This document shows, in pieces, positions 3,594 to 60,805 of a stretch of DNA of 64,000 bases. Under the pieces are notes generated by a model that was not told the origin of the DNA, did no database searches, and worked only from the letters and a program-made list of their open reading frames with translations. The stretch is from positions 2,232,001 through 2,296,000 of the forward strand of contig JAWMAR010000133.1 in the NCBI GenBank assembly GCA_036785375.1, given 5' to 3'. How positions within the stretch are numbered: position 1 is the first letter of the stretch; the number at the start of each line of letters is the position of its first letter. The position numbers and the translations under genes were made by a program. This stretch comes from Leucoraja ocellata. Lineage: Eukaryota.

Positions 3594-3841
3594 CTGAGGG
3601 GAAAGGAAGACAGATTTATCTATCGTTCAACTAAATAACTGTAAAACAATCTCCTTAAAGAGATTTAAGCTGAGGGGGGGGAAAGATTTAATAGGAACCT
3701 GAGGGGTAGCATTAAATTTTTTTATGCAAAGGGTGGTGGGTGTAATGGAGCAGGCTGCCGGAGGAGGTAGTTGAGGCAGGTACTATCATAACATTTAAAA
3801 GACATGTGGACAGATCCATGGATAGGAGAGGTTTAGAGGGT

Positions 3842-4115
3842 TTAAGAAGGAACTGCAGATGCTGGAAAACCGAAGGTAGACAAAAGTGCTGGAGAAACTC
3901 AGTGGGTGCAGCAGCATCTATGGAGCGAAGGAAATAGGCAACGTTTTGGGTCGAAACCTAAAGGAAATAGGCAACGTTTTGGGCCGAAACCCAAAGGAAA
4001 TAGGCAACGTTTCGGGTCGAAACCCAAAGGGTTTCGGCCCGAAATGTTGCCTATTTCCTTCGCTCCATAGATGCTGCTGCACCCGCTGAGTTTCTCCAAC
4101 ATTTTTGTCTACCTT
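3842..4115. mobile_element. Penelope-derived foldback element with 33-nt internal repeats
   Basis: Inverted arms, 3+1 units, 13-bp TSD AGGTTTAGAGGGT (3829-3841 and 4116-4128). Confidence 0.8.
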
Positions 4116-4428
4116 AGGTTTAGAGGGTAGGTGGGCCAAGCGCGGGTAGGTGGGCCATGTTGGTCAGAGTGGGCAAGTTGGGTCGAAGGGCACGTTCTGT
4201 GAACCTGCTGCATTCCGCCACACAACAAACATGCCACACATCAACCTCACAGTTCCACCCATGCTGCTGACATTGCATGAGAACATAGGGCAGTGCACCA
4301 TGGAGCAGGCCCTTCAGCTCACAATGTCCATGCCGAACATGATACCAGGTCTTATCTCCTTTGCCTGCATGTGCTCCATTCTCTGCATGTCCATGGGCCT
4401 ATCCAAAAGCCTTATCAATGCTACAATC

Positions 4429-6385: not shown

Positions 6386-6774
6386 CAAATCTCAGAAACA
6401 AGGAACTGCAGATGATGGGTTACAAAAAAGTCACACTGTGCTGGAGTAACACAGTAGTTTAAAGTGAGGAGTCTATGGAGAAGTTCATAAGACATAGGAA
6501 CAGAATTATGCCATTCGGCCCATCAAGTCTGCTCCACCATTTGATCATGGCTGATCTATTTCTCCCTCTCAACCCCATTCTCCTGCCGTCTCCCCGTAGC
6601 CTTTGTCACCTCACTAATCAAGAACCCATCAATCTACTTTAAATACACAGATTCACCACCCTCTAGCTAAAGAGATTCCTCCTCATCTCCATTATAAAGT
6701 ATTTCCTTTCACTCAGAGGCTTTGCCCTCGGGTCCTAAACCTTCCCTCCACTGGGAACATCCCACATCCACGTT

Positions 6775-6968
6775 GAAGGTGAGGACAAGTTCTGCCAGGC
6801 AGAGAGAGGAGAGTGTTGGTACAGAAGAACTGAGTGGATCTCTGATTAAAGGAAGAGATCGGAGGGCCCTGCGACCTTCCTGGTGAGGGATGAAGGTGTA
6901 AAGAGACCGGATGTCCATAGTAGAGATGAGGCAACCTGGGCTGAGGAACGGAAAGTTGTCAAAGCCCA
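6775..6968 (-). mobile_element. Penelope-like reverse transcriptase fragment
   Basis: LISTMDIRSLYTFIPHQEG..LAELVLTFN (PLE RT motif). Confidence 0.75.
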
Positions 6969-8456: not shown

Positions 8457-9000
8457 TAGCAATCCCAACAGTATCAGAACCGAGGTCAAGGAAAATTATC
8501 CAAGGAAGAGGCAAACTACAAGCCTTGTGCTTGAATAGAAAATGGGCTGAATGAATTTACTACTGGTTTTGTGTAGGAAGGAACTGCAGATGCTGGTTTA
8601 AACCGAAGATAGTCACAAAATGCTGGAGTAACTCATCGGGACAGGCAGTATCTCTGGAGAGAAGGGATGGGTGACGTTTCGGGTCGTCCCTGAGGAAGGG
8701 TCTCGACGGAAACGTCACCCATTCATTCCTTCCCTCCAGAGGTGCTGCCTGTCCCGCTGAGTTACTCCAGCAGTTTGTGTCTTACTACTTGTTTTGCTCT
8801 TTTTAGCTTTCGGAAGCTTTAACATCATCATGTGCTTGTGCGTAGTGTAGATCTTCGTAGGTGAAAGGTAAAGATTTGAAATGAACATGGCATGTAATAT
8901 TCAAGTTGGTGGCAGCAAGCTATTTGTCTAAGTTGGTTGTTAAAAAAGGTAAGCAAACTAGAAGAATTTCTGCTTCAAAAATGCAGTGCACCATGTGAAA

Positions 9001-13617: not shown

Positions 13618-13682
13618 TAAACATTGTCATCAAACCCGCTGACAAGGGAGGTGTCGTGGTAGTCTGGCAATCTGACCTCTGG
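13618..13682 (+). mobile_element. Penelope-like N-terminal motif fragment
   Basis: NIVIKPADKGGVVVVW (PLE DKG motif). Confidence 0.7.
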
Positions 13683-14415: not shown

Positions 14416-15061
14416 AGGGGGAACGTGGTTGTGTAATGTGGGGTCATTGTGTAACGTGGGGACCTTTGGTGAGCTGAACTCTAACAGGCTGAGGCCGGGC
14501 GCCAGCTCTCAGACACCTCCTCTTACTTATCCTTGGACCATGACGTCAGAAGAAGTGTCTCGACCCGAAACGTTGCCCGTTCCTTCTCTCCAGAGATGCT
14601 GCCTCACCCACTGAGTTACTCCAGCATATTGTGTCTACCTTCAATTTAAACCAGCATCTGCAATCCTCTCTTGCACACCATGACCCCACAGATGAGCACC
14701 AGGTCATAATCTTTTATTTATTTATTTGTGTCTATCTTCAGTGTAAACCAGCATCTGCAGTTCCTTCCTACACAAGATATTTGCATGCAGTGGACATAAA
14801 ACATGCGCAAAACCAATATGCTGCTTTTCCGAATCTGTTAAAGGCGGCATTTTAATGGTTGTATAGAGACAGTGTCTTCTGAACATGCATCTCAATTAAC
14901 CGACATTGCACATAAACCCTTTTAAACCCTTCTTCATCCAATCAACTCAAAAGTTGTTTATTCTTATTTGATCCCATTATACACAATTACATATTTTGCT
15001 TCAAATGTCATGCACAAGTTTTACTTTTTACTTACACCTTTGATAAAAAAAACTTTTTTCC

Positions 15062-20232: not shown

Positions 20233-20734
20233 CTGTTCAGTAAGAAACGCAAGAACAATTACTTCTTTGAGATTCCACCTAATGTTTTTAAATATTTAAC
20301 ATTGCTGATGACAGTGGGCGCGAATAAACCAGTAAAACCGTTATTTCAGCGTTGCTAAGGTAATATACCACTATTCATGTTTATAACATGAAGTGGTACT
20401 GACCTTCTATACCTTTCACCACAGTATGTAATAGTCAAAGACTATTAGAATTCAAATCAGAAACACTTTTTTATTTATTAAGTAGTCAATTAATATTTCG
20501 CTGATGATTCCAATCATGAATAAGGCAATTTTTCTCTGAGGGCTATTTAAACAATAAATAGCGAGCATTATCATTATAAAATTTTACTAACATTAAAAAC
20601 AAACACTTTTTCCAAGGATATCTAGCACTAACAGAACAGAGAAATGTCAGCTGGGCCAGATAACTAACTCCAATGCCAGATCAAAAACCACTTTGGAGGA
20701 GATCAAACTACTAAATTAATAACTTCATTGGATT

Positions 20735-21114
20735 TAAGAAAGAACTGCAGATGCTGGGAAATCGAAGGTACACAAAATGCTGGAGAAACTCAGCAGGTGC
20801 AGCAGCATCTATGGAGCGAAGGAAATAGGCAACGTTTCGGGCCGAAACCCTTTGGGTTTCGACCCGAAACGTTGCCTATTTCCTTTGGGTTTTGAGGAAT
20901 TAGTCCAATGAAGTTACACAAAAATGCTGGAGAAACTCAGTGGATACAGCAGCATCAATGGAGCGAAGGAAATAGGCAACGTTTCGGGCCGAAACCCTTT
21001 GGGTTTCGACCCGAAACGTTGCCTATTTCCTTTGGGTTTCGGCCCAAAACGTTGCCTATTTCCTTCGCTCCATAAATGCTGCTGTACCCGCTGAGTTTCT
21101 CCAGCATTTTTGTG
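20735..21114. mobile_element. Compound Penelope-derived foldback element
   Basis: 15-bp TSD TAACTTCATTGGATT (20720-20734 and 21115-21129). Confidence 0.8.
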
Positions 21115-21423
21115 TAACTTCATTGGATTAATTCGTCATATGTTGCAAAACATACTTGGCAGATCTGATTCTGATTAATAGTATTATTACATTGATAAAA
21201 ATACACATTCATGATGATGGTACAATTAAATGAGTACTTTATTTTCAACTGAAATTATGAAATGCATTAAATGCACACGAGGATGAGGCAGCAAATGTAA
21301 TTTTCTAAAATAGTTTTGCTTGATTGTGCTGCATTTAACACATTGGCCACTTCTTTGACCCACTGGTGGAAAGAATGGCAGGCCAATTTATGTGATAAAG
21401 CAATGAATAGATAATAAACTCAC

Positions 21424-23418: not shown

Positions 23419-23482
23419 CTAAAACAAAAGAATTAAAGCTGGATTAATATCTATCTACTCTACTAAACAATTATTTTCAACA

Positions 23483-23720
23483 GGTAGACAAAAGTGCTGG
23501 AGAAACTCAGTGGGTGCAGCAGCACCTATGGAGCGAAGGAAATAGGCAATGCGTTGGGCCGAAACCTGAAGGAAATAGGCAACGTTTCTGGCCGAAACCC
23601 TTTGGGTTTCGGCCCGAAACGTTGCCTATTTCCTTCGCTCCATAGATGCTGCTGCACCCGCTGAGTTTCTCCAGCACTTTTGTCTACCTTCGATTTTCCA
23701 GCATCTGCAGTTCCTTCTTT
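23483..23720. mobile_element. Penelope-derived foldback element just upstream of exon 2
   Basis: Inverted arms, 2+1 units, imperfect TSD of about 17 bp. Confidence 0.75.
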
Positions 23721-26099
23721 AACAAATTATTTCCAACATGTTTGCCAGTATAAATCAATATTTTGATAAACATTTAATAATGTAAAAACAAGTGGTGCAT
23801 TGGTTAGTGATCAAATACAGAGTGGGTACAGTGGTTAGCACTGTGGCTTCACAGCTCGAGAGACCCAGGCTCGTTCCTGATCGAGCCTCTGGAGTTTGCA
23901 TGTTCTCCCTGCTATAGTTTTCTTCCACATGCCAAAAGATTTGCCGGCTGTTAGGTTAATTGTAAATTGCCTCTAGAGTAGCGTCATGGAAGTTGGGATG
24001 TGCAAGCATGGGTTGGTGGATGGGGATGTGAGATGAATGATGGGCTTCATGTATATACGTGTTTGAAGGTCAACATGTACGGTGTTTAGGTTTGTTTTAA
24101 TTGAGTTTATTGTTATGCAACATTATGTGCTGTGCGTTTCAGCGTTGCAAGACTTTCACTCTCGTTTCCTTCAGTCTCCCCAACACAAACATTCTCTCAC
24201 TTAAGTACCACAATGCATATTTCCCCCCATTTCCAGTTGAGCTTGCAGGAGGAAATGCAGAAAAGTATAGGTATATGGATATGGACAGGTATAAGTATAT
24301 TGAACAGGTATATGGATATGGACAGGTATAAGTATATTGAACAGGTAAATGGATAGGAATGGCTTGGAGAGATTCAGGCCAAATGCAGGTAAATGGGGCA
24401 AGCTTGGATAGGCACCTTAGTTGCATGGAAGAGTCGAGCCAGAGTCAAAAAGTGCAGTATAACTTTCACCCTTAAAACACTGGAACTGCAATAAAACTTT
24501 TGTATGGCACACTTGAAATACATCAACAATTGATCTGCAGTTAGTCCAGCAAGAAATAAGAAGTAAACGTCATTCCCTTATTGCAGGAATAATAAATACT
24601 TAAAGAATACAAAATCAAAAACCTGAACGCACCCGACACATGCCATGCTATGGGACCAATTAGAAATGACAGGCGGAAGAGATCTATTCTCAAAGCTCAC
24701 TGATGATCTCTAGTGGCATAAATCCAGTGGTGCAACATAGAACACCATCTCCAAAACTTCCAACTGAGTTATAATTTCACAATTCACAAATAGAACAGTA
24801 CAGCACAGGAACAGGCACATTACGTCAGTGCCAATTTAAACTGCACATGGTCTATGCACCTCCATTCCCTGTCAATATAAACACATTAATGTTTAATGTT
24901 CAAGAAGGAACTGCAGATGCTGGAAAATCGAATGGAGACAAAAATGCTGGAGAAACTCAGCGGGTGAGGCAGCATCTATGGAGCGAAGGAAATAGGCAAC
25001 GTTTCGGGCCAACGTTTCGGGGGGGGGGGGGGCAGGACGAAGAAACGAAAAGGTGGAGCCAGTGGGCTGAGGGAGAGCTGAGAAGGGGAGGATTAAGAAC
25101 ATTCAGGAAAACACTGAACATTTCAACTCTGTACGTAGGGATCGAATGCAAACTAGGCAACTTCCACTGAGCAGCAATCCATCCTACAATCGACACTACA
25201 ATAGTCCGTATCGGAAATTAAAAACAACAGGGGTGCTCTAAGATTGAATCAAGAGACAATACTGGTTCAAAACTAAGCTAATTTTACTGCCTGACCACAT
25301 ACAAGCTGAAAATATTAATAATGTGACAAATGTCCTACAAAAAAGTGAAATAGGATGCTTAAGAACACAGGCTAAAAGCTAGAGCTGAATTTCATGCACA
25401 AAGCTATCACCTTACATTACATATACTTTACGTACACATTTCTATCTGAAGCAAAGAAGTCGATGCATTAAATCACAGAAGGTACACAAAAATGCTGGAG
25501 AAACTCAGCAGGTGCAGCAGCATCTATGGAATGAAGGAAATAGGCAACGTTTCGGACCAAAACGTTGCCTATCTCCTTCACTCCATAGATGCTGCTGCAC
25601 CCGCTGAGTTTCTCCAGCATGTTCGTGTACCTTCTGAGATTTAATGCATCTGCAGTTCTTTCTTAAATATTAAATCCAGATCAGCTTTGGACACAACATC
25701 CTTCAAGTCTCACACATTTCAGGATGACAGATTGAAATAACATGGTCTATACAACAGTTGGGATAATGTTGATTCACTGGAACGCACCCAAGACACAGAC
25801 ACAGATATAAACAGTTTCAATTGAAGGCTGATTACAAGATGTTCCTCTCAATTCAAAGCTACGCAATGCAATTTGAGTGAAATATTCTCTCCACTGAGAT
25901 ATGATTACAACTTTTTGCAACTCAAACCAATTCCAAGTAAAACATGTTTGGAGATATTAAACCAAAATTATTATTCATGTCAGACAAAATTATTTAAACA
26001 ATTCACTACAGTTTACAAATCACTTTATCCATTTACACTATTCACAAATATTGTTGCCTTTAATCATTATTTAATTATTATATATTATTATTATTATTA

Positions 26100-33201: not shown

Positions 33202-33588
33202 GTGAGTTGATGATTGCTACGTTTTTCATTTTATGCAAAGGGAATCTTCACATCTACATTATTAAGCACTAACCTTGGAGGATAAATGTACGGTAGTCAC
33301 TAATAAAATTAATGAAGTATTCAAGGGGAATATAGTTTTTTTTAATCAAAGGTATAGGAGACCCCATAGCAGAAGCGTCCATGTTGCGGGAGCTGGAAAC
33401 TGGAAGTATCCTGAGCTAATTCTGCTACCACCATCATCTATTGCAACATTGCCACTGAGTGCCATCGTCCGTCTTATGCCTCCTCTTGGAAGTTGGCGTC
33501 CTTTTCAGGATGGCCGATGACAGCGATGTCAACATTTTAAACATGGAAGATGGATGCCAAAGAAGAAAGTTATAGGTAAAAAGTAGAA

Positions 33589-33850
33589 GATAGACAAAAA
33601 TGCTGGAGAAACTCAGCGGGTGCAGCAGCATCTATGGAGCAAAGGAAATAGGCAACGTTTCGGGTCGAAACCCAAAGGGTTTCGGCCTGAAACGTTGCCT
33701 ATTTCCTATTGCCTATTTTCTTCCCTTTTCTTTCCAGCATCTATGGAGCGAAGGGAATAGGCAACGTTTCGGGTGCTGCTGCACCCGCTGAGTTTCTCCA
33801 GCATTTTTGTCTACCTTCGATTTTCCAGCATCTGCAGTTCCTTCTTAAAC
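33589..33850. mobile_element. Penelope-derived foldback element (rearranged)
   Basis: 15-bp TSD AGGTAAAAAGTAGAA (33574-33588 and 33851-33865). Confidence 0.8.
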
Positions 33851-34211
33851 AGGTAAAAAGTAGAACTAGTGCAAGACATTTGATGCAAAAGATGGGATTG
33901 TGTATAATGGCATCTTAAATAAAAATAAACAACTTTTGAATTGATTAGATGAAGAAGGGTTTAAAAGTGTTTATGTGCCACGTCGGTAGGTTAAGATGGA
34001 TGACTTGCTTCAATGTTCGGAAGACACTGTCTCTATACGATAAATAAAATGCTGCCTTTAACTGTAATGGGACTACCAGGGTATCAGTGCCTGGTACGGC
34101 AATTCCAAAGCATACAAACACAAGATGCGGCAGAGAGTTGTGGTTCAGCCTCGTCCTTCCCGGCACTACCCTCCATACCATTAAAGGCGCCCACACAAGA
34201 TGCTGTCTCAA

Positions 34212-34590: not shown

Positions 34591-35865
34591 TAAGAAGCGT
34601 CATCTATCAAAAAGGATTCTCACTATCCGGATCATACCCGTTTCTTGCTGCTATCAATGAGCAGGAGGTACAGAAACTGAAGTCCCACACCACCAGGTCC
34701 AGCAACAGCTGCTTTCAGATGACCGTCAGGTTCTTTAACAGACCCACACAACCGTAATCCTACTTCAGCCATGGAACACTACACACCAGCCTTTGAACTA
34801 CCATTTTTACACATCTTTTTTCTTTTTGATGCCTTGCACAAAACGTATAACTAATGTTTTTGTCTGTTGTCTGAGTCTATCTGCCCACGATGCTGCTCGA
34901 TCAAAGGTAGACAAAAGTGCTGGAGAAACTCAGCGGGTGCAGCGGCATCTATGGAGCGAAGGAAATAGGCAACGTTTCGGCTCGAAACGTTGCCTATTTC
35001 CTTCGCTCCATAGATGCCGCTGCACCGGCTGAGTTTCTCCAGCACTTTTGTCTACCTTCGATTTTCCAGCATCTGCAGTTCCTTCTTAAACAACATTCTG
35101 CTCCATCAAGATTCTTGTTGTACCTGCAGCTCACAATACTTTTGTATTGGACAATAAAATAGTAGACTTGACCAAGACTGAATTGGATGAGTCTTGCTTT
35201 CATGTGGAAATGGATAAAGAGGTGCAGCGTGAAAATAAAACAACATGTAAATGTTGGAGATCTGGGATAAAACAGCAAATGCTAGAAACACTTAGCAGCT
35301 CGGACAGTAACTGTGGAAGGTGAAACAATCAACATTTCAGGTCGAAGGGCCTTCCTCAGACTCCACAGTTGATGCCAGACATGCGGCTTGTCTTCAGCAT
35401 TTTCAGTTTTTATTAAATGGACAGAGAAATTCATTAAGAGATAGAATTTCCATGATTTCTTCGAGCTTTACAGTGCAGTTGCATATTGTGCATGTTTTAA
35501 AAAGTATCAATTCACGACAGTGTTCAATATCCAATTATATATAAATATTTTATGATGAGATTTCCCTTCACAATTACAACTTTTACTCTGCAATGCAAGA
35601 TGTCCCAAAGCTACTACTTCCTCCTTCACCCTACCCAATCCTTCCTTTGTCTTATTTACAACATTTGCAATTTATGTTAGATGTAGGCAATTTTTTTTTG
35701 ATATATCGCCATGGCATTCTAAATTATGTGCACTGCCTTTAGTTTCATAATAACAACAAATAATTGAGAGCAGAAAGATTAAAGGTGAGTGGGAAAAGAT
35801 TCAAAAGGAAATGGAGGGGCAACATTTTGGGGGTGGGTGTATGGAATGAGCTGCCAGAAGAGGTA

Positions 35866-36046
35866 TTTATGAAGGAACTGCAGATGTTGGAAAATCGGTA
35901 GACAAAAATGCTGGAGAAACTCAGCGGGTGCAGCATCATCTAAGGAGCGAAGGAAATAGGCAACGTTTCGGGTCGAAACGTTGCCTGTTTCCTTCGCTCC
36001 ATAGATGCTGCCTCGCCCGCTGAGTTTCTCCAGCACTTTTGTCTAC
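35866..36046. mobile_element. Penelope-derived foldback element (similar copies at approx. 25477-25668, 34905-35090, 37211-37427)
   Basis: 15-bp TSD CTGCCARAAGAGGTA. Confidence 0.75.
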
Positions 36047-39000
36047 CTGCCAAAAGAGGTAGTTGCGGCAGATACTATAACAACATTGAATAGCTATTTA
36101 GACATGTATATGGATATGAAAGGTGCAGAGGATATATATGGGCCAAACGCAGGTAAACAGTTCAAGGTATCACATAGCTAGATTGAAATAAAGCCAAAGT
36201 TCTGAAAAATGAATTAAAGATCAAGCCAAATGTCCACGCAGCCAAATAATGAAAAAACAATTGACATCACTTCCTGTCACATTTCTGGATTCAGCAGATT
36301 TATTACATTGGTTCAAGTGTTATCAAGCCTTGACTTTAAAGTGATTCAGAAGAGAAATAAAAATCAGGACAGATCCTAGGCAATTATTTTCTAAGAGCAT
36401 ATGTAAAAATAATAAGCGACATTCCTGTAATTTAAGGTTAAAATCAAGGACTTTTCAGATAGAGTAGACTGCTAATGGATGGAAATGTCTTGCAATCGTT
36501 CAAGGAAGCTCTGGATGCCAAATAGTATTTTTGGATGGAAGATAATGGCCTCCCACGTTAAGTCTCACCATCAGGAAGTAAATGATGGTTAGGCACTTAC
36601 GCAAGAAAGAATTAATGAAAATAATTCAGGAGTCATATTTTAAATATATATTCTCAGTCAAAAATGCACAGATCAACTAGATGGGGTGGGAGATTGCAAC
36701 CTTCACGTGGTCCGCCCTGTTTCGACCAGGCCTGCAAAATCAAATAGAACAAGTTGTCCTTCAACTTCAGGCTGTGCACGCCATACGCAAGAAGAAGAAG
36801 ATTAATTAGATAATAAGATGGTTTCCCTTGAACATTCATTATTACACAATACCACTTGGTGTGTAGCTCCTGCAGATAGCAAAATAAGAATACATTTTCA
36901 AATGAATTTTCAAGTACAAGCACAACACCTTCAATAACTTTGACATATGGGGGAAAAAACGATGATTATTGGCAATAATGCTTGACAACACACCAACAGT
37001 TGTATCCACATACTTCACACAACCATATATCCAGAATTGCTTAGACACAGATTTGCTAATTCGGCTCACCGATGATGAATGTGTGTAAACAAGACAGGCA
37101 ACTACCACACACGTGTATCATTCGGTTAATAAAACATCTAGAAAATCATTTCATATACAATCTAGCAATTTAGCTATATTTTTCAACACAAGATCCAAAC
37201 TCTTTAAGTGAAGGTAGACAAAAATGCTGGAGAAACTCAGGGTTTGAGGCAGCATCTATGGAGCGAAAGAATAGGTGACGTTTCGGGTCGAGTCCCTTCA
37301 GGACCCTTCTCGACCCGAAACGTCACCTATTCCTTCGCTCCACAGATGCTGCCTCACCCGCTGAGTTTCTCCAGCATTTTTGACTGCCTGTGATTTTCCC
37401 AGCATCTGCAGTTCTCTTTCTTAAACAACTCTTAAGTGAAGTATTTTCAAGAACAGCAAGTGTGTAATCTGATACACCAAATGCTGCCCAACCTGCTGAG
37501 TTACACCAGCATTTTGTATCCATCTTTGGTATCAACCAGCATCCTTTTGATTACATTAATCAGCCTTTGAATACAGGCAGATTGTACATTGACAGTTGAA
37601 ACGACTTATCTCTTTACATTACAGCTATAACTTTTACGGTAATGTTTGGGTAATCATGAGAACTCCCTTCAGGAAAACACAATCAGTTCACAAATTGCTT
37701 CTCCAAATATTAAACATTCTAACCCGAGTAAATTCTGACAAATTCCCAGAATCACCAAAGGAAATAAATTTATCACACCTCAGAAACACCACTTGCAAAT
37801 AACTCCACACAATCAGAGGTGCCTCCAATGGGATTAAAGCAACTAAAGAATGCCCACACATAAATAACCTTGAAGGCAGCAATCCATTAAATAGAAAATT
37901 GCAGATATAAGACACCGCAGTTGCTAGAATTTTGAGCAAAACACAAAGTGCTAGAGGAACTCAGCGGGTCAGGCAGTCTGAAGAAGGGTCCCAACCCGAT
38001 AAGTTATTTGTTCATCCCCTCCCCAGATGCTGCCTTACCTGCTGTGTTCCTCCAGCACTTTGTGTTTTCCTTGTAATAGAAAACTATTATGCAGCTCAAC
38101 CCACCATTTTTAATGCAAACTTGCATCAACTATTTACTTACAACTATTTAAAAATAGCAATCTTGTTGTGTAATACCAGGCTTGTTAAACACTGTCTTGA
38201 ACCCCTGAAAAGTACTTAGATATATGCAAAATACAATGGGTGAAGTTACTGCCTTGGATTCACTCCACGAATGGTTTACATGTAGGGCGTGGAACAGTTT
38301 GACCAGCAGTCCTTCAGTTTAAATAAAGTGTGGGAAAGGCTGATGGGACAAGACATAGGAGATGCTGTGAAGGAGTTAAAGGGATTGGGCCCCCTCTGCT
38401 CCTGGATATTCAGGGGCTTTGACCACCGGCTACAGGGGCTTTGATCGCCCCGAATGCGGATGGTAGAGGAATAAGTTTGAATTTTATTGCCTTCCATCAC
38501 AGAGAGGAATGTGGAATCCACTGTGGTGGATGTTTATGTTAACATTTATGTGGTTGTGTGTCTTGTTGCTTTTCACTTAGTGTGGCCGTATGGTAACTCA
38601 AATTTCACTGTACCTTAACTGGTACATGTGACAATAAACTAGCCTTGAAACCTTGAACCTTGGAACTTTGAGTCTGGTGGGGACATTTCACAGATAAGGG
38701 CAGGGATATCACCCCAGGGACCACATGAGTGGAAAGGGTGCTTTGTGTAAAGACAGATGCAAACACTAATGCGTATGTCACAATTAAATGTACAGGCGCA
38801 AGATCAAAGTTCACACCAGGAACAGCGCGGAACAGTACAAAACAGGAACAGGCCCTTTGAGCTATGATGTCTGTGTGAAACATGATGCGAAACGAATCTA
38901 ATTTGCTTACTCGAGATCCCTATCCCTCCATATCGATCTGCCTATCCAAAAGTCTCTTAAATGCCACTAATGTATCTGTCACCCGCTGAGTTTCTCCTGC

Positions 39001-44692: not shown

Positions 44693-45760
44693 ATTTTATT
44701 TATGGGCACCTTTCAAGAGTCTCAAGGACACCTTACAAAAATTTAGCAAGTAGAGGAAAAACATGTAAGGGGAATGAAATTAATAGTAGAGACATGACTA
44801 GTACACAAATCATAAATTAAAGACAGAATTCAATTCAAAACACAATATGAGGCAAAATACACCCAGAATACAATTTAAAGTTGACATTCTAGAGAGACCC
44901 ACCCATGCGTTAGTCACTTGTTTATTTGCAATAAGTTCACAACTCCATTGTTCTGACAGTAATATTATCCAGTACTATTCTACTTTTTCTACAAGGATGA
45001 TATTACAGTACTGGTGTGTTATGTTCTGAGTTGTGGATCACAAAAGATTGACACACCGCCAACACAAAGCTGGGTTTAATTTAAACGGTTTCTAATTTTG
45101 GTCAGGGAATTGTGACAACACCAGCAGTCATGAAATGAAAGGACATGAATTATGCACTACTAGTTAGTTCCAGCATCTTATTCTTCTGGGGCGTGCAGAG
45201 CCTAAAGTTGTAGGTCAGCCTGTTCTATCTGATTGCTTTGTTTGTGTACGTCGGGTTGATTGCATTAGATGGACCATGTGAAGGTTGCAATCTCCCACCC
45301 CAGCATCTTGTCAAGGGCATAGGACATAGAACAGTACAGCACACAAACAGGCCCTTCAGCCCACAAGGTCCATGATGTCAAGGCCAACTCCTATCTGCCT
45401 GTGCATAATCCATATCCCTCCATTCACTGCATATCAACATGCCTGTTCAACTCTTTTAAATGCCACTAATATATCTGCCTCCACGATCACCTCCCACCCT
45501 CTGTTTCAAAACGTGCCCTGCACATCTCCTTTAAGCTTTGCCCCTCTCAAGGTAAAAGTTATGCCTTCCAGTAAAATTGATTTTTCCATCCTGGAAAAAA
45601 GGCTCTGACTGTCTATCCTGTCTATGCCTCTCCTAATTGTATATTCTTCCATCATGTATCCCAACAATTTCAGGTTCCCAGGTATTCTTTTACTCTGGTC
45701 ACTTCAGGTTTGACGGCCTGTACTCTGGAGAACACATGAAGTTTGTAACTCAGTGACTAA

Positions 45761-45986
45761 TGCCCCTGTCCCACTTAGGAAACCTGAACGGAAACCTCTT
45801 GAGACTTTGCTCCCCACCCAAGGTTTTCGTGCGGTTCCCGGAGGTTTTTATCAGTCTCCCTATCTGCTTCCACTATCTGCAACCTCCGGCAACCACCTGC
45901 AACCTCCGGGAACCGCACGGAAACCTTGGGTGGGGCGCAAAGTCTCCAGAGGTTTCCGTTCAAGTTTCCTAAGTGGGACAGGGGCA
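45761..45986. mobile_element. PIF/Harbinger-type MITE, near-perfect palindrome
   Basis: TGCCCCTGTCCCACTTAGGAAAC.. arms of about 85 bp, TAA/TTA flanks. Confidence 0.8.
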
Positions 45987-46639
45987 TTAGGATACCTCGT
46001 GTAAGAAAGAACTGCAGATGCTGGTCGACATAAATCGAAGGTAGACATAAAATGCTGGAGTAACTCAACGGGTGAGGCAGCATCTCTGGATCCCATTCCT
46101 TCTCTCCAGAGACGCTGCCTCACCCGCTGAGTTACTCCAGCATTTTGTGTCTACACTCAGTATACCTTTATTGTCGTTGCCAAATTGCAGCAATTATGAC
46201 TCTCTAATACCAGGAAGTGAAAATCATCTTGAAATAAAATAGTCAGTAATAAAAATCATACTTTTTGGTCTATTGGAGATTAAAATTAATCCGATTTTTT
46301 TGGCAAGCTCTGTAGAACTTAGTTGTGATTACAAAGTTCTTTAAACATGCGAGCGTGATGCGTCTAGTGTGATTGTGACATAGCTGGTTGTAATTAAGTG
46401 TGAGTGTAAGTAAATTAGTCAAGTTATTGTCAGATGTATAAATATGGGTAGACAGAGATACATTGAAAGTCATACCTGCGGCAATATCACGGCCATGTAA
46501 ACTCAAACTGTACAGGAGGCAACTCAGAATACAGAGGATAAAGTCTGGAGATATCCTTGAATATTCCAGCCAGATTGTCCTCACACAAGTCTTTAACAAT
46601 TGACCAGATATGCTGATATATGCTGATATAAATGCTACA

Positions 46640-47215
46640 CTTGTCACTTTACCTCCCCCCCCTCCACTCCATCCAAGGACCCAAGCAGTCTTTCCAGGTG
46701 AGGCAGAGGTTCACCTGCACCTCCTCCAACCTCATCTATTGCATCCGCTGCTCTAGGTGTCAGCTGCTCTACATCAGTGAGACCTAGCGTAGGCTTGGCG
46801 ATCGCTTCGCCCAACACCTCCGCTCAGTTCGCAAAAATCAACCCGATCTCCCGGTGGCTCAGCACTTCAACTCCCCTTCCCATTCCGAATCCGACCTTTC
46901 TGTCCTGGGCCTCCTCCATGGCCAGAGTGAGTCCCACCGCAAATTGGAGGAGCAGCACCTCATATTTCGCTTGGGTAGTTTACACCCCAGCGGTATGAAC
47001 ATTGACTTCTCCAATTTCAGGTAGTCCCTGCTTTCTCCCTCTTTCCCCTCCCATTCCCAGCTCCCCCACAGCCCACTGTCTCCGCCTCTTTGTTTCATCT
47101 TCCCACCCCCCTCCCACATAAGTCTGAAGAAGGGTCTCGACCCGAAACGTCACCTATTCCTTCGCTCCATAGATGCTGCCTCACCCGCTGAGTTTCTCCA
47201 GCATTTTTGTCTACC
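46640..47215 (+). mobile_element. Penelope-like element 3' fragment: GIY-YIG endonuclease pseudogene (46668-47024) plus 3' repeat with hammerhead motif
   Basis: FTCTSSNLIYCIRCSRCQLLYISET*RRLGDRFAQH..VAQHF..RKLEEQHLIFRLGSLHPSGMN; in-frame stop at 46785. Confidence 0.9.
47121..47155 (+). ncRNA. Minimal type I hammerhead ribozyme motif (PLE-associated)
   Basis: CUGAAGA-A-GGGUC(UC)GACCC-GAAA-CGUC core. Confidence 0.7.
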
Positions 47216-47491
47216 GAAGGAAATGCAGATGCAGGTTTACAAAAAAAAGAAACAAAGTGCTGGAGTAACTCAGCAGGTCAGGCAGCATCTTTGGAGAACA
47301 TGGATAGGTGATGTTTCAGGTTGGAGCCTTCTTCAAACTCGCTGAAGTAGGGTCCCGACCAGAGTCACTGTCAATCCATGTTCTCCATAGATGCTGCCCG
47401 TCCTGCTGAGTTACTCCAACAGACAAAACGAGTAGGAAGGAACCGCAGATGCTAGCTTAAACCGAAGATAGACACAAAAATGTTGGAGTAA

Positions 47492-47812
47492 TAGCCCTGT
47501 CCCACAGTGCGAGTTCATTCCAAGAGCTCTCCCGAGTTTAAAAAAAATCAAACTCGTGGTTAGCACGGAGAATGAACGTAGCGGGTACGTCGGAGCTCGG
47601 GGACGTCCCTTAGCACTAACGGCAGGTACTCGGGAAGACTCGCTAACGGCAGGTAAGCACGGGAAGACTAGTGAAGATTTTTCAACGTGATGAAAAATGT
47701 CCACGAGAGCCCCGAGTACCGACGAGTGGTCATTACCGTAAATCTCCCGAGTTCGAATCAGGGCAAACTCGGGAGAGCTCTGGGAATGAACTCGTACCGT
47801 GGGACAGGGGTT
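47492..47812. mobile_element. PIF/Harbinger-type MITE nested in a Penelope-derived repeat
   Basis: Interrupts GGAGTAA|CTCAG with 3-bp TWA flanks. Confidence 0.8.
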
Positions 47813-48490
47813 TTACTCAGCGGGACAGGCTGCATCTCTGGAGAGAAGGAATGGGTGTCAAGACCCTTCTTCAGGCAGATCAGTCTCCTGAAGATCCCTT
47901 CATTGGTGAGAAGGCCAGTAGCTGTGATGGGCCGGGCTGTGTCCACCACTCTGTCATTCATGGGCATTCTATACATTACAGGCCTGATGGCTGGCAATTT
48001 CCTGTCTATTTTCACCCAGCCTATCGGTAAAACTCCAAACCCTAAACCCAGTATGGTCTTTGGTTGCATTGCATCACCTCAGTCTGTCCCTAAATCTCGA
48101 CCTATGTACCCTCTCTCCAACAAATGTCCGTGTTTGTATGTTTCCCATCATTGGCCCTGGCGAACACTGGCATGACTGAGCTCGCCAGTTTCCTTCACTG
48201 AAAATTTGAGACTGAGGCTTTTGTTCTCTGCACTCTTTGTTTCTTTGCCAACGACTTAATCCTGTTGTCTCGTCAGTCAAGCAGAGTGGTTGCCAGCGCA
48301 ATTATTCTTGTAGAGTACTGCTCGCTGGCAATAACCCCCTCACCTGCATACACCTGTCACCTGCCTCCACCTGTAACCTGTTTCCACCTTTTACCACCTG
48401 TTACCTGCCACATGCCCCCTGCCACGTTTAGGCTGTACTCCGTTAAGTCCTGATCTGAAACACCACTGATCCATGCTTTCCAGAAATGCT

Positions 48491-48801
48491 TCAGAAGGTA
48501 GACAAAAGTGCTGGAGAAACTCAGCGGGTGCAGCAGCATCTATGGGGCCAAGGAAATAGGCGACGTTTCGGGCCGAAACCCTTTGGGTTTCGACCCGAAA
48601 CGTCGCCTATTTCCTTCGGGTTTCGACCCGAAACGTTGCCTATTTCCTTTGGGTTTCAGCCCGAAACGTTGCCTATTTCCTTTGGGTTTCAGCCCGAAAC
48701 GTTGCCTATTTCCTTTGGGTTTCGGCCCGAAACGTCGCCTATTTCCTTCGCTCCATAGATGCTGCTGCACCCGCTGAGTTTCTCCAGCACTTTTGTCTAC
48801 C
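48491..48801. mobile_element. Penelope-derived foldback element with expanded array
   Basis: One 33-nt unit in the left arm and five in the right; 12-bp TSD TCCAGAAATGCT. Confidence 0.8.
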
Positions 48802-50398
48802 TCCAGAAATGCTACCTGACCCGCTGAGTTTTTAGTCTCAGTTTTAGAGATTGATCGTGGAGCCAGGCCCTTTGGCCCACCGTGTCTGCGCTGACCAACT
48901 AGTTCAAACCTACACACCGGGGATAATTTACAGAAGCCAATTAATCTTCAAACACGCACACGTCTTTGGAATGTGGGAGGAAACCAGAGCACCCGGGGGA
49001 AAAAAAACCCCACGCAGAACCCCACGGGGAGAAGGTACAAACTCCGTACAGACAGCTCCCGTGGTCAGGATCGAGCCCAGGTCTCTGGCGCTGTGAGGCA
49101 CCATATCATTGTGCTGCCCGCGGGAGTTACTCCAGCACTAGTTGTTGCCTTCTGTACATCAATCATACAGCCACATACCGTACCAAAGATACACTGGTTC
49201 TATTGACAGTGCATGTGACAATTAAACCACTCCCAGCTCATCACGACCCTGGCGATTCCAATTTTTAATTATCTCGATTTACTTCAACTCATTATGACAA
49301 TAGATGGCGCTGTTGGTCCTTGAAACCCATCAACCAGATAGCCGTTCCTCCTTTTAAAAATGTTTTCTTCATCAATATTCTTTCTACCTCAGCCATTATA
49401 GGACGTCCCATCCAATGATACCCCCCCCCCCCCCCCCCCCCCCATATTCCCATGGCCTATTTGTGATGATCATTGCTGGATTTCACAGCAATGATAAGAG
49501 TCACAGGGTCAATGTTTAAGAAAAAACTGCAGACTCTGGAAACATCGAAGGTAGATACAAATGCTGGAGAGACTCAGTGGGTGAGGCAGCATCTGTGGAG
49601 TGAAGGAATAGGCGACCTTTCTGAAGAAGGGTCTCGACCCGAAACGCCACCTATTCCTTCGCTCCACAGATGCTGCCTCACCCGCTGAGTCATAGAGTCA
49701 TATCACTCTCCAGCTGGTTAGTTTAGTTTAGAGATACATCGCGGAAACAGGCCCGCAGGTTCTCTTGGACACTTTCAAGAGAGAGCTTGAGGGGGCTCTT
49801 AAAGATAGCGGAGCCAGGGGATATGGGGAGAAGGCAGGAACGGGGTACTGATTGGGGATGATCATTGAATGGCGGTGCTGGTTACTCCTGCACCTATTGT
49901 CTATTGCAGGTGCTGGAATCTTGCAAAGAACACAAAATGCTGGAGGGACTCAGCAGGTCGGGCAGCACCTATCCATACCCTCCACAGATGTTATCTGAGC
50001 CGCTGACGAAGAAAGCTTGACTTGACTTGAATTCCTCCAGCACTTAGAGTGTTTTGTTCAAGATTGCAACGTCTGCAGTTCGTCGCGCCTCCATTGCCCT
50101 TTGGAAATCCAGAAAATTACGACTGGTGTCAAAATATTTACAAAGATCAGATGTCATTTTGTACACACTTATGCAGAATCATCATTAATCGTACCTTTTA
50201 GAGTTGACAAATTTCAGAACAAGCAGTGTCGAGATTAAGGCACTTTATTTCACACTTCAAGCATTAATTCAAATATACATTATGAATTCGTATAATTTTG
50301 AAATTATAATTTCATATTTTCAAGCCATGTGAAAAATAAAGGCAGCTTGCAAATCTTTAAGCATGGGCAATACTATAATCCATACTAAGCAAAGCTCT

Positions 50399-50975
50399 TT
50401 AAGAAGGAACTGCAGATGCTGGAAAATCGAGGGTAGACAAAAGTGCTGGAGAATCTCAGCGGGTGCAGCAGCATCTATGGAGTGAAGGAAATAGGCAACG
50501 CTTCGGGCCGAATAGGAACCGTTTCAGGAAATAGGCAACGTTTCGGGCCGAAACCCTTCGGGTTTCGACCCGAAACGTTGCCTATTTCCTTCGCTCCATA
50601 GATGCTGCTGTGCCCGCTGAGTTTCTCCAGCACTTTTGTCTATCTGCAGTTGCTTCCCCCGCAAGGAAAGCTGGAAGCATGGCGATGATTTACATCAACA
50701 CCGGAGTTTGTGACAATGAAAGACGAGGTTATTCGCAGCTGAGGAAGCGAAATTGGATGGTCAACAGTTTTGTGAGAATAAGCTTATTGTGAGTTTCACA
50801 GACAAAGCCAGTGTAGAGAGGTCAAACGGAATGTCCAGAGCAAAGGCAGGACTTTATCTGGTCACTAAAATCCGTTTGCCTATTTCCTTTGGGTATCGGC
50901 CCGAAACGTTGCCTATTTCCTTCGCTCCATAGATGCTGCTGCACCCGCTGAGTTTCTCCAGCATTTTTGTCTACC
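50399..50975. mobile_element. Composite Penelope-derived element with unique internal segment
   Basis: 14-bp TSD CTAAGCAAAGCTCT (50385-50398 and 50976-50989). Confidence 0.75.
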
Positions 50976-51874
50976 CTAAGCAAAGCTCTGCTGGATCTCA
51001 CTATTAATGCCAACTATCATATTCACTGCTATAAATTATTCCCAAATCTTACACATTTGATTAAAATAAAAAAACTTTAAACCATATATATTCTAACAGT
51101 AGAAAGAGGCCAACAAAGTTAATAGATTTATTTTATTTAATAGCGTGGAATTATTTCACTGGTTTTGCTTCAGGAGATATCTCGTGAAAAACTGCTCGTG
51201 TTCGGGATAATTCTCTCTGCTCCGACACCAGTTCTCGTGGAGCGGAGAATATTTCCCAAGGCTCATTTGTTTGCAGGTACAGTTCCCAATTCAGGAAAGA
51301 CACCATTCACACCAACCACAAGTTTTACACATGGGCTTGTGTAACAGGCCATTCAGCCCACCAGATCCATGCCGACCATCGATCACCCATTCACATTAGT
51401 TCTATGTTATCCCTCTTTCCCCATCCACTCCTTACACACCAGGGCAATTTACAGAGGGCCGATTAACATACAAACCCGCACGGCTTTGGGACGTGGGAGG
51501 AAAACCGGAGCGCCCGGAGGAAACCCACGCGGTCACGGGGAGAACGTGCAAACTCCGCACGGGACAAAACTAAAAACCTTAACCTCCAGGCAAATGAACC
51601 CAGGCCTTTGGCATTTTGTTTCGACTGGGGGCCTTACATTGAATGGCGGTGCTGGCTCGATGGGCCGAATGGCCTTCACATGCACCTATTGTCTATTGTC
51701 TTACCTTTGGACTAAGAACATCACTCACACAGAGGTAGCTCCTAGACACATCACTGCTCAGTGCGCGGAAATCGAGTGTGACTGCTGTCGCAAGAGTAAT
51801 ATTGGCAACTTCACAAAGTGGAAGATTCGGCCAGACATCCCATTAGTTAACGGTGAAACCGGGTCCGCATAACT

Positions 51875-52186: not shown

Positions 52187-52518
52187 AGGGCCTGTCCCAC
52201 TTAGGCGATTTTTTCGGAGACTGCCGGCACCCGTCATAGTCGCAGCAGGTTGCTGAAAATGTCCAACATGTTGAAAATCCAGCAGCGATCAGAAAAAGGT
52301 ACGTATCTTTGGGAGACGACTCACGACCATACAGGCGTCACGTGTCGACATGTCGCGGGGGTGAAGCCTGTACGGTCGTGAGTAGTCGCCCAGAGAGTCG
52401 TACCTTTTTCTGGTCGCCGTTGAATATTCAACATGTCGAAAACCATCGGCCACCTGCTGCCACCATGACGGGTGCTGGCAAGTCGCCGAAAGAAAATCGT
52501 GTAAGTGGGACTGGCCAT
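52187..52518. mobile_element. PIF/Harbinger-type MITE
   Basis: AGGGCCTGTCCCACTTA TIR; same family as 2760-3060. Confidence 0.75.
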
Positions 52519-53781: not shown

Positions 53782-54707
53782 TAAATTATAAAAGCATAAA
53801 TAGGCCATTCGGCCCATCCAGTCTGTTCCGCCATTCAATCATGGCTGATCTATCTTCCCCTCTCAATCCAATTCTTCGGCCCACCGAGTCCGCGCCGACC
53901 AGCGATCCCCGTACACTAACACAACCCTACACACACCAGGGAGGAAGCCAGAGATCCAGGAGAAAACCCACACAGGTCACGGGGAGAACGTGCAAACTCC
54001 ATACAGACAGCAACCCCGCAGTTAGGGTCAAACCCGGGTCTCTGGCGATGTAAGGCAGCAACACTACCGCTGCGCCACTGTTCCACACTTGTTGGTTAGA
54101 CTGCACTTGGATAACTCTCTTGCCCAGAAAATCAAAGGACATAGGTTTGAGCTGGGGGGGGGGGAAGATTTAATAGGAACCTTTTTATTTTACACAAAGG
54201 GTGGTGGGTGTATGGAATGAGCTGCTGGAGGAGGTAGTTGAGGCTGGTAGTAAATGTTTAAGAAACATTTAGACAGGTACATGGATAGGACAGGTTCAGA
54301 GGGATACGGCCCAAATGCTGGCGTGGGACTAGCCCAGTATGCCAACCCGGCCAGCATGGACAAGGTGGGCTGAAGGGCCTGTTTCTGTTCTGCACAGATC
54401 TATGACTCCTTTTTTCCTTAATCCATTTATCACTGACGTACACATTTAAAAGAATAAAGGATTTTTCTGTAAACTTTACTAAATAATTTCTTGCATGTAT
54501 GTCCCTAGTAGGGATATTGAGTAAAGAAAAAACACAGACATCAGTAGAAACAAGGAACTGCAGATGCTGGTTTACGAAGAAAGACACAAAGTGCTGGAGC
54601 AAGTCAGTGGGTCAGGCAGCATCTCTGGATGTTTCTGGTCTGAAGAAGGGTTCCGATCCGAAACTGCACCTATCCATTGTCTCTATAGATGCTGCCTGAC
54701 TCACTGA

Positions 54708-55355: not shown

Positions 55356-56027
<672 letters not shown>

Positions 56028-56245: not shown

Positions 56246-56882
56246 ACATAGAAACATAGAAAATAGGTGCAGGAGTAGGCCATTCGGCCCTTCGAGCCTG
56301 CACCGCCATTCAATATGATCATGGCTGATCATCCAACTCAGTATCCTGTACCTGCCTTCTCTCCATACCCCCTGATATCTTTAGCCACAAGGGCCACATC
56401 TAACTCCCTCTTAAATATAGTCAATGAACTGTGGCCTCAACTACCTTCTGTGGCAGAGAGTTCCAGAGATTCACCACTCTCTGTGTGAAAAATGTATTCC
56501 TCATCTCGGTCCTAAAAGATTTCCCCCTTATCCTTAAACTGTGACCCCTTGTTCTGGACTTCCCCAACATCGGGAACAATCTTCCTGCATCTAGCCTGTC
56601 CAAACCCTTAAGAATTTTGTAAGTTTCTATAAGATCCCCCCTCAATCTTCTAAATTCTAGCGAGTACAAGCCGAGTCTATCCAGTCTTTCTTCATATGAA
56701 AGTCCTGACATCCCAGGAATCAGTCTGGTGAACCTTCTCTGTACTCCCTCTATGGCAAGAATGTCCTTCCTCAGATTAGGAGACCAAAACTGTACGCAAT
56801 ACTCCAGGTGTGGTCTCACCAGGACCCTGTACAACTGCAGTAGAACCTCCCTGCTCCTATACTCAAATCCTTTTGCTATGAA
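56246..56882 (-). mobile_element. CR1 LINE 3' fragment
   Basis: AKGFEYRSREVLLQLYRVLVRPHLEYC..WNSLP, open frame. Confidence 0.9.
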
Positions 56883-58356
56883 AGGAGCAGCCAGAGGCAA
56901 TGGATCTGCCAGGACAGTTCTGTTTTTGTGGATTTTCAGGAGGGTAAAAGTGGGAGATAGAAGTGGGTCTGAGGAATAATGAGGTCGGAGGCTCTGGAGA
57001 GATGAAGATTGGTCAAAAAGTCATAAGGAATAGGGGTAGAATTAGGCCATTCGGCCCATCAAGTCTACTCCACCATTCAATCATGGCCGATCTATCTCTC
57101 CCTCCTAACCCCATTCTCCTGCCTTCTCCCCAGAACCCCTGACACCCGTACTAATCGACAGTCTATCCTTCTCTTCCTTAGAAATATCCACTGACTTGTG
57201 GCCTCCACAGCCTTCTGTGGCAAAGAATTCCACAGATTCACCACCCTCTGACTGAAGAAATTTCTCCTCATCCCCTTCCTAAAGGAACATCCTTTAATTC
57301 TGAGGCTGTGACCTCTAGTCCTAGACTCTCCCACCCGACCCGAAACATCACCCAATTAAATGCGGTTTAAAGGAAAGGAGACAAGATGTCAGTCAGACAA
57401 ATCGTGGGGGGGTCAAATATGGAATTATTAGCCGAGCAGACGAACAGAGAAACATTATTAAGTATTTCATACAATTCATCAATAGTACATGCCCTCACTT
57501 GAAGAATAAATCAGCTGTGATCAATAAATTGATCAGGATAAAATAAAAGTGTAGGAAGGAAGTGCAGATGCTCTTTTAAACCAACGATAAACACAAAACG
57601 CTGGAGTAACTCAGCGAGACTGGCAGCATCTCTGGAGAGCAGGAATCAGTGACGTTTTGGGTCGGGACCCTTCTGAAGAAGGATCTCGACCCGAAATGTC
57701 ACCTGATTTTGGACGATCAGCCATGATCATATTGAATGGCGGTACTGGCTCGAAGGGCCGAATGGTGATTTTATTCGGGTCGGGATCCTTCTTCAGAAGC
57801 GTCATGACCCGAAATGTCACCCATTCCTCCTCTCCAGAGATGCTGCCTGTCCCGCTGAGTTACTCCAGCTTTTTAGAAACATAGAAACATGGAAAATAGG
57901 TGCAGGAGTAAGCTTCTAGTCGGCTGTTTTATCCGGCCATTAATGCCAAGAGCCTCTGGATTTTACATAGAAACATAGAATAGGTGCAGGAGTTGGCCAT
58001 TCGGCCCTTCGAGCCAGCACCGCCATTCAATATGATCATGGCTGATCATCCAGAATCAGTACCCCGTTCCTGCTTTTTCCCCACATCCCTTGATTCCGTT
58101 AGCCCCAAGAGCTAAATCTAACTCTCTCTTGAAAACATCCAGCGAATTGGCCTCCACTGCCTTCTGTGGCAGAGAATTCCACAGATTCTGCGTCTTAGAT
58201 TCTGTGTCTATCGAAAGGAAAATGATTGTATGATTCGCAAAGGCAAATGTCTAAAGGCAAAATGCCCAGGGGGCTATGAAGAGTGACAGAGGATGGTTAG
58301 AATGTAGTACGAGATGCTAAAAGGAAAATATTGATGAATGTATACAGCAGCCCCTA

Positions 58357-59862: not shown

Positions 59863-60805
59863 TAACACCATTCTCTTTCTCTTACTCAGTTTTCAATTGC
59901 TCATTAATTTCCCCGTTTACCCTCTCTCCTCTTTCCAACTTTCTCTCTCTCCTTCTGCGGCTAACTCTTTTATTTTCCCTTCATCCTTTCCACAATTTCC
60001 ATTTCCTGGCCTCCAGTCATCGGCTTCACTTCACTTCCTATAGAACGTCGGTGTTTCAATCTTTAAAATGAGAGCCCGCCTCTCTCATTCGCCTTCACTC
60101 TGTGCAGATCTCCCCGGGTCCCACCCAGTGAAACCATCAATAAAGCCGCTAGAGTTACGATGGGATCATAGTGCGACGTGCAACAAATTAAAAATCCTTT
60201 CCTCATATTTCTCTTTCAGCGAGAGCAGACACACAAGGGTTTGGAATGAGGAAGTAGCTTGTATTTTTTCAAACACTGTGTACTTTGCTTATCATTCTTC
60301 TTCTTATCGAGCCCACAAACAAGATTAGGAGATTGATACAAACAGGGCCGCGACGTGAACGCTCTTTCCTTGACCTACCCCCACCCCCCACCCCCCCCCC
60401 CGCTTATCATTAACAGCGGCCAGTTTAATCTACTGGAGGACATCCTGTGAAGAGCCATTTTTACAAAAAGTACTTTCGAAGGCATGTGAGGACTCAAGAG
60501 TGTTTAATGTTTAAAGGGCCCTGCCCCACATTCACGACCTAATTCACGATCATTTTTACTCGGGGACATTTTTCAACAAGCTAGATAAAACGCTGCGATC
60601 TTCGTGACGCCACGAGTACCTCAGACTAGCATCACGACCTACCTACGACCTCGTGCTGCGAGTACGAGTCAAGGGCAAACTCGGTACCAGAAGGTACAGG
60701 AGCCTGAAATCTACAACGTCTAGGTTCAGGAATAGCTACTTCCCCACAGCCATTCGACTATTAAACTCAACTCAAACAAAAATCTGAACTTTAATTGCCT
60801 ATTGC

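Follow-up and report, generated by a model that had tools for sequence, protein, structure and literature searches.

A Penelope-derived foldback lineage with a shared, core-less centre in a skate genome

The 64-kb stretch of skate DNA that was analysed (the window) contains ten head-to-head inverted elements of one repeat, each of ~180-577 bp. Nine of these loci share diagnostic bases (subfamily B); all are foldbacks in the window, and the CUGANGA core of the hammerhead ribozyme is present in none of them (0/9). Six have a base-identical, polarised junction (type I), which probably reflects common descent, and the remaining three (E4, E6 and E7) are centred on an internal palindrome (type II). 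Based on the comparison of these copies we lean towards a model in which one foldback became an ORF-less master that was re-amplified in trans by the RT/GIY-YIG enzyme of a Penelope element (PLE), the outer ends being remade at each insertion. The new part is the core-less foldback lineage with its inherited junction and variable 33-nt array, and the remaining anatomy is mostly known PLE biology.

Each of the ten elements is one insertion, whose arms correspond to the terminal repeat (pLTR) of a PLE, probably of Neptune type (Table 1). An earlier reading of the same DNA without database searches (the sequence-only reading) had described the ten loci as one family of inverted repeats of 180-380 bp with one longer arm and target duplications of 12-17 bp. 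Inverted repeats with target duplications were found at 10/10 loci and the size range holds for most, but the duplication at 50399 encloses 577 bp; nine loci form one family, whereas the one at 37211 belongs to subfamily A and has its own junction. The duplications measure 12-16 bp, none reaching 17 bp, and are of unrelated sequence; five are exact, three have 1-2 mismatches and two a 1-nt indel. Their score was 9-15 in nine of ten elements and 8 in E4, as compared to mismatched flank pairs, in which 8 or 9 was reached in 2/210 and more than 9 in none. In addition, paralogous copies of the host repeat show the target once for three of ten elements (E5, E7, E9); the same search gave only a weaker match for E1 (11 vs 13), only the element's own internal duplication for E2 and none for the other five. 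A ~35-nt extension occurs on exactly one arm in 9/10 elements (p about 0.01), the exception being 48491, in which both arms are short. This longer arm is the published 30-40 bp PLE tail. Insertion by a retrotransposon is supported by the variable length of the duplications and by ends at two recurring sites.

Table 1. Positions of the foldback elements and of other features in the window
Feature	Position	Strand	Class and centre	Arms	Target duplication	Remarks
E1	3842..4115	.	subfamily B, type I junction, centre 4019-4035	left: tail plus three 33-nt units (3928-4030); right: short	3829-3841 / 4116-4128, exact 13 bp	intron of TM9SF/EMP70 gene, within CR1-like fragment
E2	20735..21114	.	subfamily B, two type I junctions (20844, 20991)	tail left, 2 units right	20720-20734 / 21115-21129, exact 15 bp	double junction from internal inverted duplication 20893-20997 vs 21034-21138 (93%), taking in ~23 nt of right flank
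E3	23483..23724	.	subfamily B, type I junction (23594)	2 units on short left arm, tail on right arm	23469-23482 / 23725-23738, 1 mismatch	
E4	25480..25668 (start approximate)	.	subfamily B, type II, centre on internal palindrome 25545-25567	tail arm includes inverted copy of ~20 nt of left flank	~12-13 bp with 1-nt indel, 8 bp exact	
E5	33589..33850	.	subfamily B, type I junction (33667)	right tail arm rearranged, 40-nt inversion at 33735-33774	33574-33588 / 33851-33865, exact 15 bp	paralogous empty site at 14970-15041
E6	34905..35094	.	subfamily B, type II, centre 34970-34992	tail right	34890-34904 / 35095-35109, 2 mismatches	
E7	35866..36046	.	type II, centre 35961-35983	chimeric: left tail arm B, right short arm with A/b diagnostic bases	35851-35865 / 36047-36061, 14-15 bp class with 1-2 mismatches	paralogous empty site at 54200-54287
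E8	37214..37426 (approximate)	.	subfamily A foldback, own junction; outside family B		37198-37213 / 37427-37441, 1-nt indel, 10 bp exact	
E9	48491..48801	.	subfamily B, type I junction (48575)	5 units on right (48580-48748); two short arms, tail absent	48479-48490 / 48802-48813, exact 12 bp	inserted into older PLE end; 4 paralogous empty sites
E10	50399..50975	.	subfamily B, type I junction with TTC centre (50550)	tail left, third arm 50891-50975	50385-50398 / 50976-50989, exact 14 bp	~230 bp captured DNA (50646-50875), unique within the window, enclosed with the PLE arms by one target duplication
Parent-type PLE, 5'-truncated	46662..47215	+	GIY-YIG endonuclease C-terminus, then repeat			
Intermediate 'b' copy	24897..25091	-	B-type inner bases, A-type distal bases, native upstream tract; non-foldback			
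Ordinary foldbacks	1575-1770, 8570-8782, 37210-37427, 37909-38072, 46003-46154, 47216-47421, 49513-49690, 54548-54707, 57555-57704					
TM9SF/EMP70 family exons	~21.7 kb down to window start (1-21.7 kb)	-				
Tyrosine kinase exons	52.9-58.7 kb	-				

The hairpins fold strongly (z = -23 for E1 and -22 for E9). Pfam domains were absent from the stop-to-stop frames of at least 75 aa scanned over the 180-577 bp elements, and ARAGORN found no tRNA. The Rfam scan gave only sub-threshold hairpin matches, the best being mir-722 with 49 bits against a threshold of 81, so that the elements do not qualify as members of a miRNA precursor family. The B arms differ on average by 4.5% from their own majority (19 arms, 73 columns); therefore, current activity of the family is not indicated.

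The Penelope origin of the arms, already proposed in the sequence-only reading, was borne out by a 5'-truncated copy of the parent type, in which the end of a GIY-YIG ORF (46662-47021) continues into the same repeat. This copy has an in-frame stop at 46785-46787, followed by the ORF end at 47021, a C/T-rich tract, the minimal hammerhead core at 47124 and the short end at ~47215. Its coding part aligns to RT and GIY-YIG proteins with E values down to 4e-59, and the Pfam GIY-YIG match on this fragment alone is weak (E 0.02). The relatives P0004 (82% identical) and P0006 comprise RT, a CxxxxCxxC linker and GIY-YIG, and the window copy ends before the linker, which is described as a mark of the Neptune and Nematis clades when it precedes the endonuclease (PMC8557442). 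The closest named relatives of the transposon protein are from the skates Leucoraja erinacea and Rhinoraja longicauda. RT remnants lie at 6733-6930 and 13620-13682, and no full-length PLE was found in the 64-kb window. A hammerhead descriptor consisting of core, spacer base, stem II and GAAA, with stem I outside the descriptor, fitted seven window copies, four of which have the GUC site (parent subfamily). These copies match the minimal hammerhead described for fish PLEs, motifs that are reported to act as dimers (PMC4209133). As expected for dimer-acting motifs, the hammerhead shape was not adopted in monomer folds of the parent repeat; Rfam yielded no hammerhead family at E <= 1 in the window.

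Foldback shape, arm asymmetry and target duplications had been taken as family traits. They are present, but they are also the ordinary and published product of PLE insertion: the repeat occurs as 79 segments forming 35 adjacent pairs within 60 nt, of which 22 are head-to-head, 11 of these outside family B. Junctions at the ten non-B head-to-head loci are all different, and one arm carries the exact core at five of them and a one-mismatch core at two more. Subfamily A is mostly inserted as short pLTR-only pieces whose start coincides with the hammerhead's 5' edge; often they are paired head-to-head through a junction seen only once. Among the non-B segments, 20/45 start within -6..+7 of the core, a count possibly inflated by BLAST end effects at the low-complexity tract, although several upstream flanks are visibly unrelated; 4/45 have upstream sequence and 1/45 starts at the cleavage site (examples of segment starts are 27353, 40600, 54640 and 56208). 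These counts indicate that short pLTR-only insertions are the main product of the PLE and that cleavage does not set their 5' ends; ribozyme cleavage in this role was rejected, with 1/45 starts at the cleavage site against 20/45 at the core's 5' edge. The core-edge starts suggest either a defined RNA 5' end at this position or a short SINE-like subfamily. Of the two arms of ordinary foldbacks, it is the short one that extends further 5' in 9/9 cases, a count from which the 5.6 kb pair was dropped as its tail was unassignable and in which the 47.3 kb pair is marginal. This suggests a fixed order of two priming events. PLE ends were also observed inserted into or directly against older PLE ends at 47215-47216 and 48479-48831, consistent with self-targeting.

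The centre GAAACCC-NNN-GGGTTTC, which the sequence-only reading had noticed in several elements together with a 33-nt array, occurs seven times at six loci and in none of 100 shuffles; the elements at 25477, 34905 and 35866, however, have a different centre and no array. Removal of the CUGANGA core was confirmed, as the 5' core is missing at 9/9 subfamily-B loci. Type I arms retain stem II and GAAA, and the cleavage triplet is altered from GUC to GUU. The junction was base-identical at six loci, as compared to ten different junctions at ten non-B loci, and polarised: at ruler position 17 beside it, A is found on five of six TTG-side arms and on none of six AAG-side arms (Fisher p = 0.015, with E2 counted once). 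A fixed asymmetry of this kind cannot result from one arm being copied onto the other. A-to-I editing is unneeded as the origin of the A/G asymmetry, since G is present in non-foldback copies (24897, P0152). The junction CpG has T at 5/6 loci, whereas C>T occurs in 4/57 cells at three other CpG sites, a comparison which assumes that the TTC form in E10 is ancestral; with these counts, independent CpG decay was rejected as the origin of the junction T. The arm reaching further 5' was the short one in 9/9 non-B foldbacks but in 2/5 type I loci with a tail (p = 0.027, from manual counts). Outer arms differed by 6.3% within and 7.8% between elements (eight pairs, leaving out the rearranged arm of E5; permutation p 0.007-0.010). 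The tests on junctions and arms were all post hoc and cover one window with n = 6-10 loci.

Outer-arm sub-variants are common to both arms and separate E2/E4 from E3/E6/E9. The same variants occur with both junction types, E2 (type I) and E4 (type II) sharing one. In the tree of 25 arms, which is a weak pointer only, 0/22 branches were starred as well supported. In E3 the inner asymmetry is absent and the array lies on the other side. An inverted copy of the element's own flank, reaching past the target duplication, is seen in E4 (25462-25650) and E2 (20893-21138), indicating that arm sequence can still change once the element is in place and making the test of arm similarity less telling.

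The intermediate copy at 24897..25091 has lost the 5' strand of the hammerhead through a different lesion. A protein search with the frame of E6 returned three records, none of which contained the foldback junction. Two of them are skate-like; their inner bases are B-type, their distal bases A-type and their upstream sequence native. The third, P0154, has B-type distal bases and an uninterpretable upstream part. Since the two records and the 24897 copy join the inner B substitutions to native upstream sequence, these substitutions appear to be older than the foldback. Skate transcripts with B-type arms and an intact core presumably exist, in which case B would also be an ordinary subfamily.

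One to five copies of a 33-nt unit per arm had been reported. Tandem Repeats Finder detected arrays of period 33 with 3.1, 2.1, 2.0 and 5.1 copies in E1, E2, E3 and E9, respectively, but none at 25477, 34905 or 35866. At the ten array joints the junction motif recurs, either as such or in forms left by CpG decay; the arrays are microhomology-bounded duplications that start at the type I junction. In E9 adjacent units share private changes, indicating stepwise growth. The units are without CUGANGA, and a protein search with an array-spanning frame (48543-48947, residues 40-135) gave no array match among 1726 candidates.

In vitro, the PLE protein of the anole has been reported to extend both cut target strands and to start at two internal sites; the PLE tail is the interval between these two RT start sites, and ribozyme mutants still insert (PMC11167929). 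In the model we lean towards, one head-to-head product would have turned into the master and then been re-amplified in trans. Each insertion would remake both outer ends from cDNA primed at both target nicks and starting at the two internal sites. Both cDNAs would run through the centre and, being complementary, could anneal to each other, so that the centre would be passed on in one piece, facing either way with respect to the tail. If a symmetric template is copied from both nicks, canonical termini are expected at either side, together with outer arms that resemble each other. The 33-nt arrays may stem from slippage between the 4-6 nt microhomology CCTT/CCTTCG of the junction and a further copy of this motif 33 nt downstream. 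The type II centre would correspond to type I minus the 22 nt between the palindromic GTTTCG-NNN-CGAAAC copies flanking the junction, or alternatively may have formed by annealing of two cDNAs at this palindrome. The chimeric E7, with one B arm and one A/b arm and weak tree support, suggests two RNA templates or conversion. Self-cleavage would be without a role in foldback spread: the sequence-only reading had suggested that it may have been dispensed with, which agrees with the loss of the core in B, but dispensability for PLE insertion was already known in vitro (PMC11167929). We speculate that the 33-nt partial hammerheads, when looped out, might base-pair in trans with the parent RNA's ribozyme. 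More tentatively than the model itself, a pure-foldback, ribozyme-less non-autonomous retroelement may be regarded as the PLE counterpart of a MITE, in which a symmetric template lets target-primed cDNAs anneal and thereby spares separate second-strand synthesis.

The sequence-only reading had further proposed a non-autonomous hairpin retroelement. The shared junction points to re-amplification, but in one window a stand-alone foldback looks the same as the 5' end of a full-length master. We consider it rather unlikely, although a serious alternative, that the junction comes from a full-length PLE master, or a small number of them, whose 5' pLTR is inverted and that the hairpins are dead-end by-products of internal initiation. 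An inverted 5' pLTR is described as typical of full-length PLEs (PMC8557442, PMC3846280), the dominance of short pLTR-only products fits internal initiation (20/45 core-edge starts, 4/45 with upstream sequence), and fixed junction and polarity are accounted for equally well. However, no ORF-linked copy of the junction occurs within the window, and the outer-arm sub-variants E2/E4 and E3/E6/E9 suggest several successive templates; several source subfamilies would also fit the occurrence of outer-arm variants with both junction types.

It is less probable still that each foldback arose independently from an ordinary B-type PLE, by snap-back or cDNA joining at a hot spot, and that later conversion and CpG decay aligned the centres. 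This would leave the base-identical type I junction, the one-sided A/G (p = 0.015) and the junction T at 5/6 loci unexplained, and it predicts B singles with a core, whereas the core is found in 0/9 B loci. On the other hand, non-B junctions cluster near the same place, and a B-lineage substitution makes a 15-nt quasi-palindrome suited to snap-back, which may explain the three type II copies. The chimeric E7 fits two templates, and self-priming at palindromic junctions has been proposed (PMC3846280).

The sequence-only reading had itself named two alternatives, a MITE with a fixed duplication and an assembly artefact. A transposase-driven MITE or foldback DNA transposon would share the long inverted repeats and the absence of an ORF, but it is very improbable: the duplications are variable in both length (12-16 bp) and sequence, the two termini of an element differ by the tail in 9/10 cases, and the arms derive from the 3' end of an RT/GIY-YIG element. 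No transposase Pfam match occurred among the 267 window frames scanned. Inverted PLE structures are reported to trouble assemblers (PMC8557442), but paired arms that differ by 1.4-9.6%, array units with private changes and intact target duplications and empty paralogues make an artefact at palindromes hardly credible.

Insertions of EN+ PLEs (Neptune clade; Adineta vaga Penelope, PMC3846280; scheme in PMC8557442) resemble the skate foldbacks in head-to-head pLTRs, a palindromic junction, a one-sided tail of 30-40 bp and a target duplication. Occasional capture of DNA between the pLTRs is likewise common to both, and mobilisation in trans is also described for the A. vaga element (PMC3846280). 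In contrast, the skate foldbacks are ORF-less, with a base-identical junction at many loci and a variable 33-nt array, and they have duplications of 12-16 bp instead of 8-10 bp and lack the hammerhead core. Non-LTR retrozymes are reportedly the subject of work by Cervera and de la Pena from 2020. In bioRxiv 10.64898/2026.07.22.740005 these elements are, like the skate foldbacks, non-coding, PLE-derived, pLTR-related, built of tandem units and presumed to be mobilised by PLEs; the criterion given there asks for two or more successive units in head-to-tail order, every one containing a complete type I hammerhead. The skate foldbacks have inverted arms instead of head-to-tail ones, and a retrozyme identity was rejected, as the core-less 33-nt units do not form a complete type I hammerhead. 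MRC1 and other non-autonomous Chlamys elements are also ORF-less, PLE-dependent and match a PLE 3' end, and the Chlamys clade is described as being without canonical hammerheads, comparable to the core-less subfamily B; these green algal elements form pLTRs, are often head-to-tail and by description are not pure foldbacks (PMC8557442). With PAc, the Poseidon element of Anolis carolinensis, the foldbacks would share two RT start sites that define a tail downstream of the hammerhead, extension of both target strands and dispensable cleavage; PAc differs in being autonomous, of another clade and studied in vitro (PMC11167929). MITEs and foldback DNA transposons are similarly short, ORF-less and hairpin-forming, but MITEs have a transposase partner and, unlike the skate foldbacks, a fixed short duplication and symmetric termini. 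Neither an ORF-less PLE foldback family with a fixed junction nor skate PLEs were found in the literature, part of which was covered by best matches only, and skate repeat libraries may already include the family.

How PLEs form inverted, tailed insertions is described as still unresolved (PMC8557442, PMC11167929). The combination of a marked, inherited centre and freshly made ends renders the PLE integration mechanism testable by counting across the skate genome. If the model holds, the fixed centre with remade ends would serve as a tracer for two-RNA, twin-priming PLE integration, with the chimeric E7 as a direct footprint, and would be the genomic counterpart of the dispensability of ribozyme cleavage in vitro (PMC11167929). 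Nine near-perfect stems of 70-100 bp in 64 kb, some in TM9SF introns, could also matter in skates for RNA editing, for small RNAs and for the way repeats or miRNAs are annotated.

The window is repeat-rich (42% self-matching), and E1 and E2 are located between EMP70 exons. The assembly has gaps near 40.3 kb and 60.9 kb. At 45757-45990 and 47486-47818 lie elements resembling MITEs, whose long inverted termini begin with the same C/G-rich end and whose flanks are T/A-rich; related pieces were observed at ~1.7-2.1 kb. A second palindromic repeat family with a perfect short central palindrome occurs at 2853-2978 and 52222-52480. The HDV-like CPEB3 ribozyme model gave two matches below its threshold of 35 bits, at 33348-33426 (+, 30.4 bits) and 60318-60389 (-, 25 bits), which are possibly retroelement-borne ribozymes. 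Finally, 55625-55874 and 56246-56495 form a 250-nt inverted pair of a CR1-like 3' end, 96% complementary.
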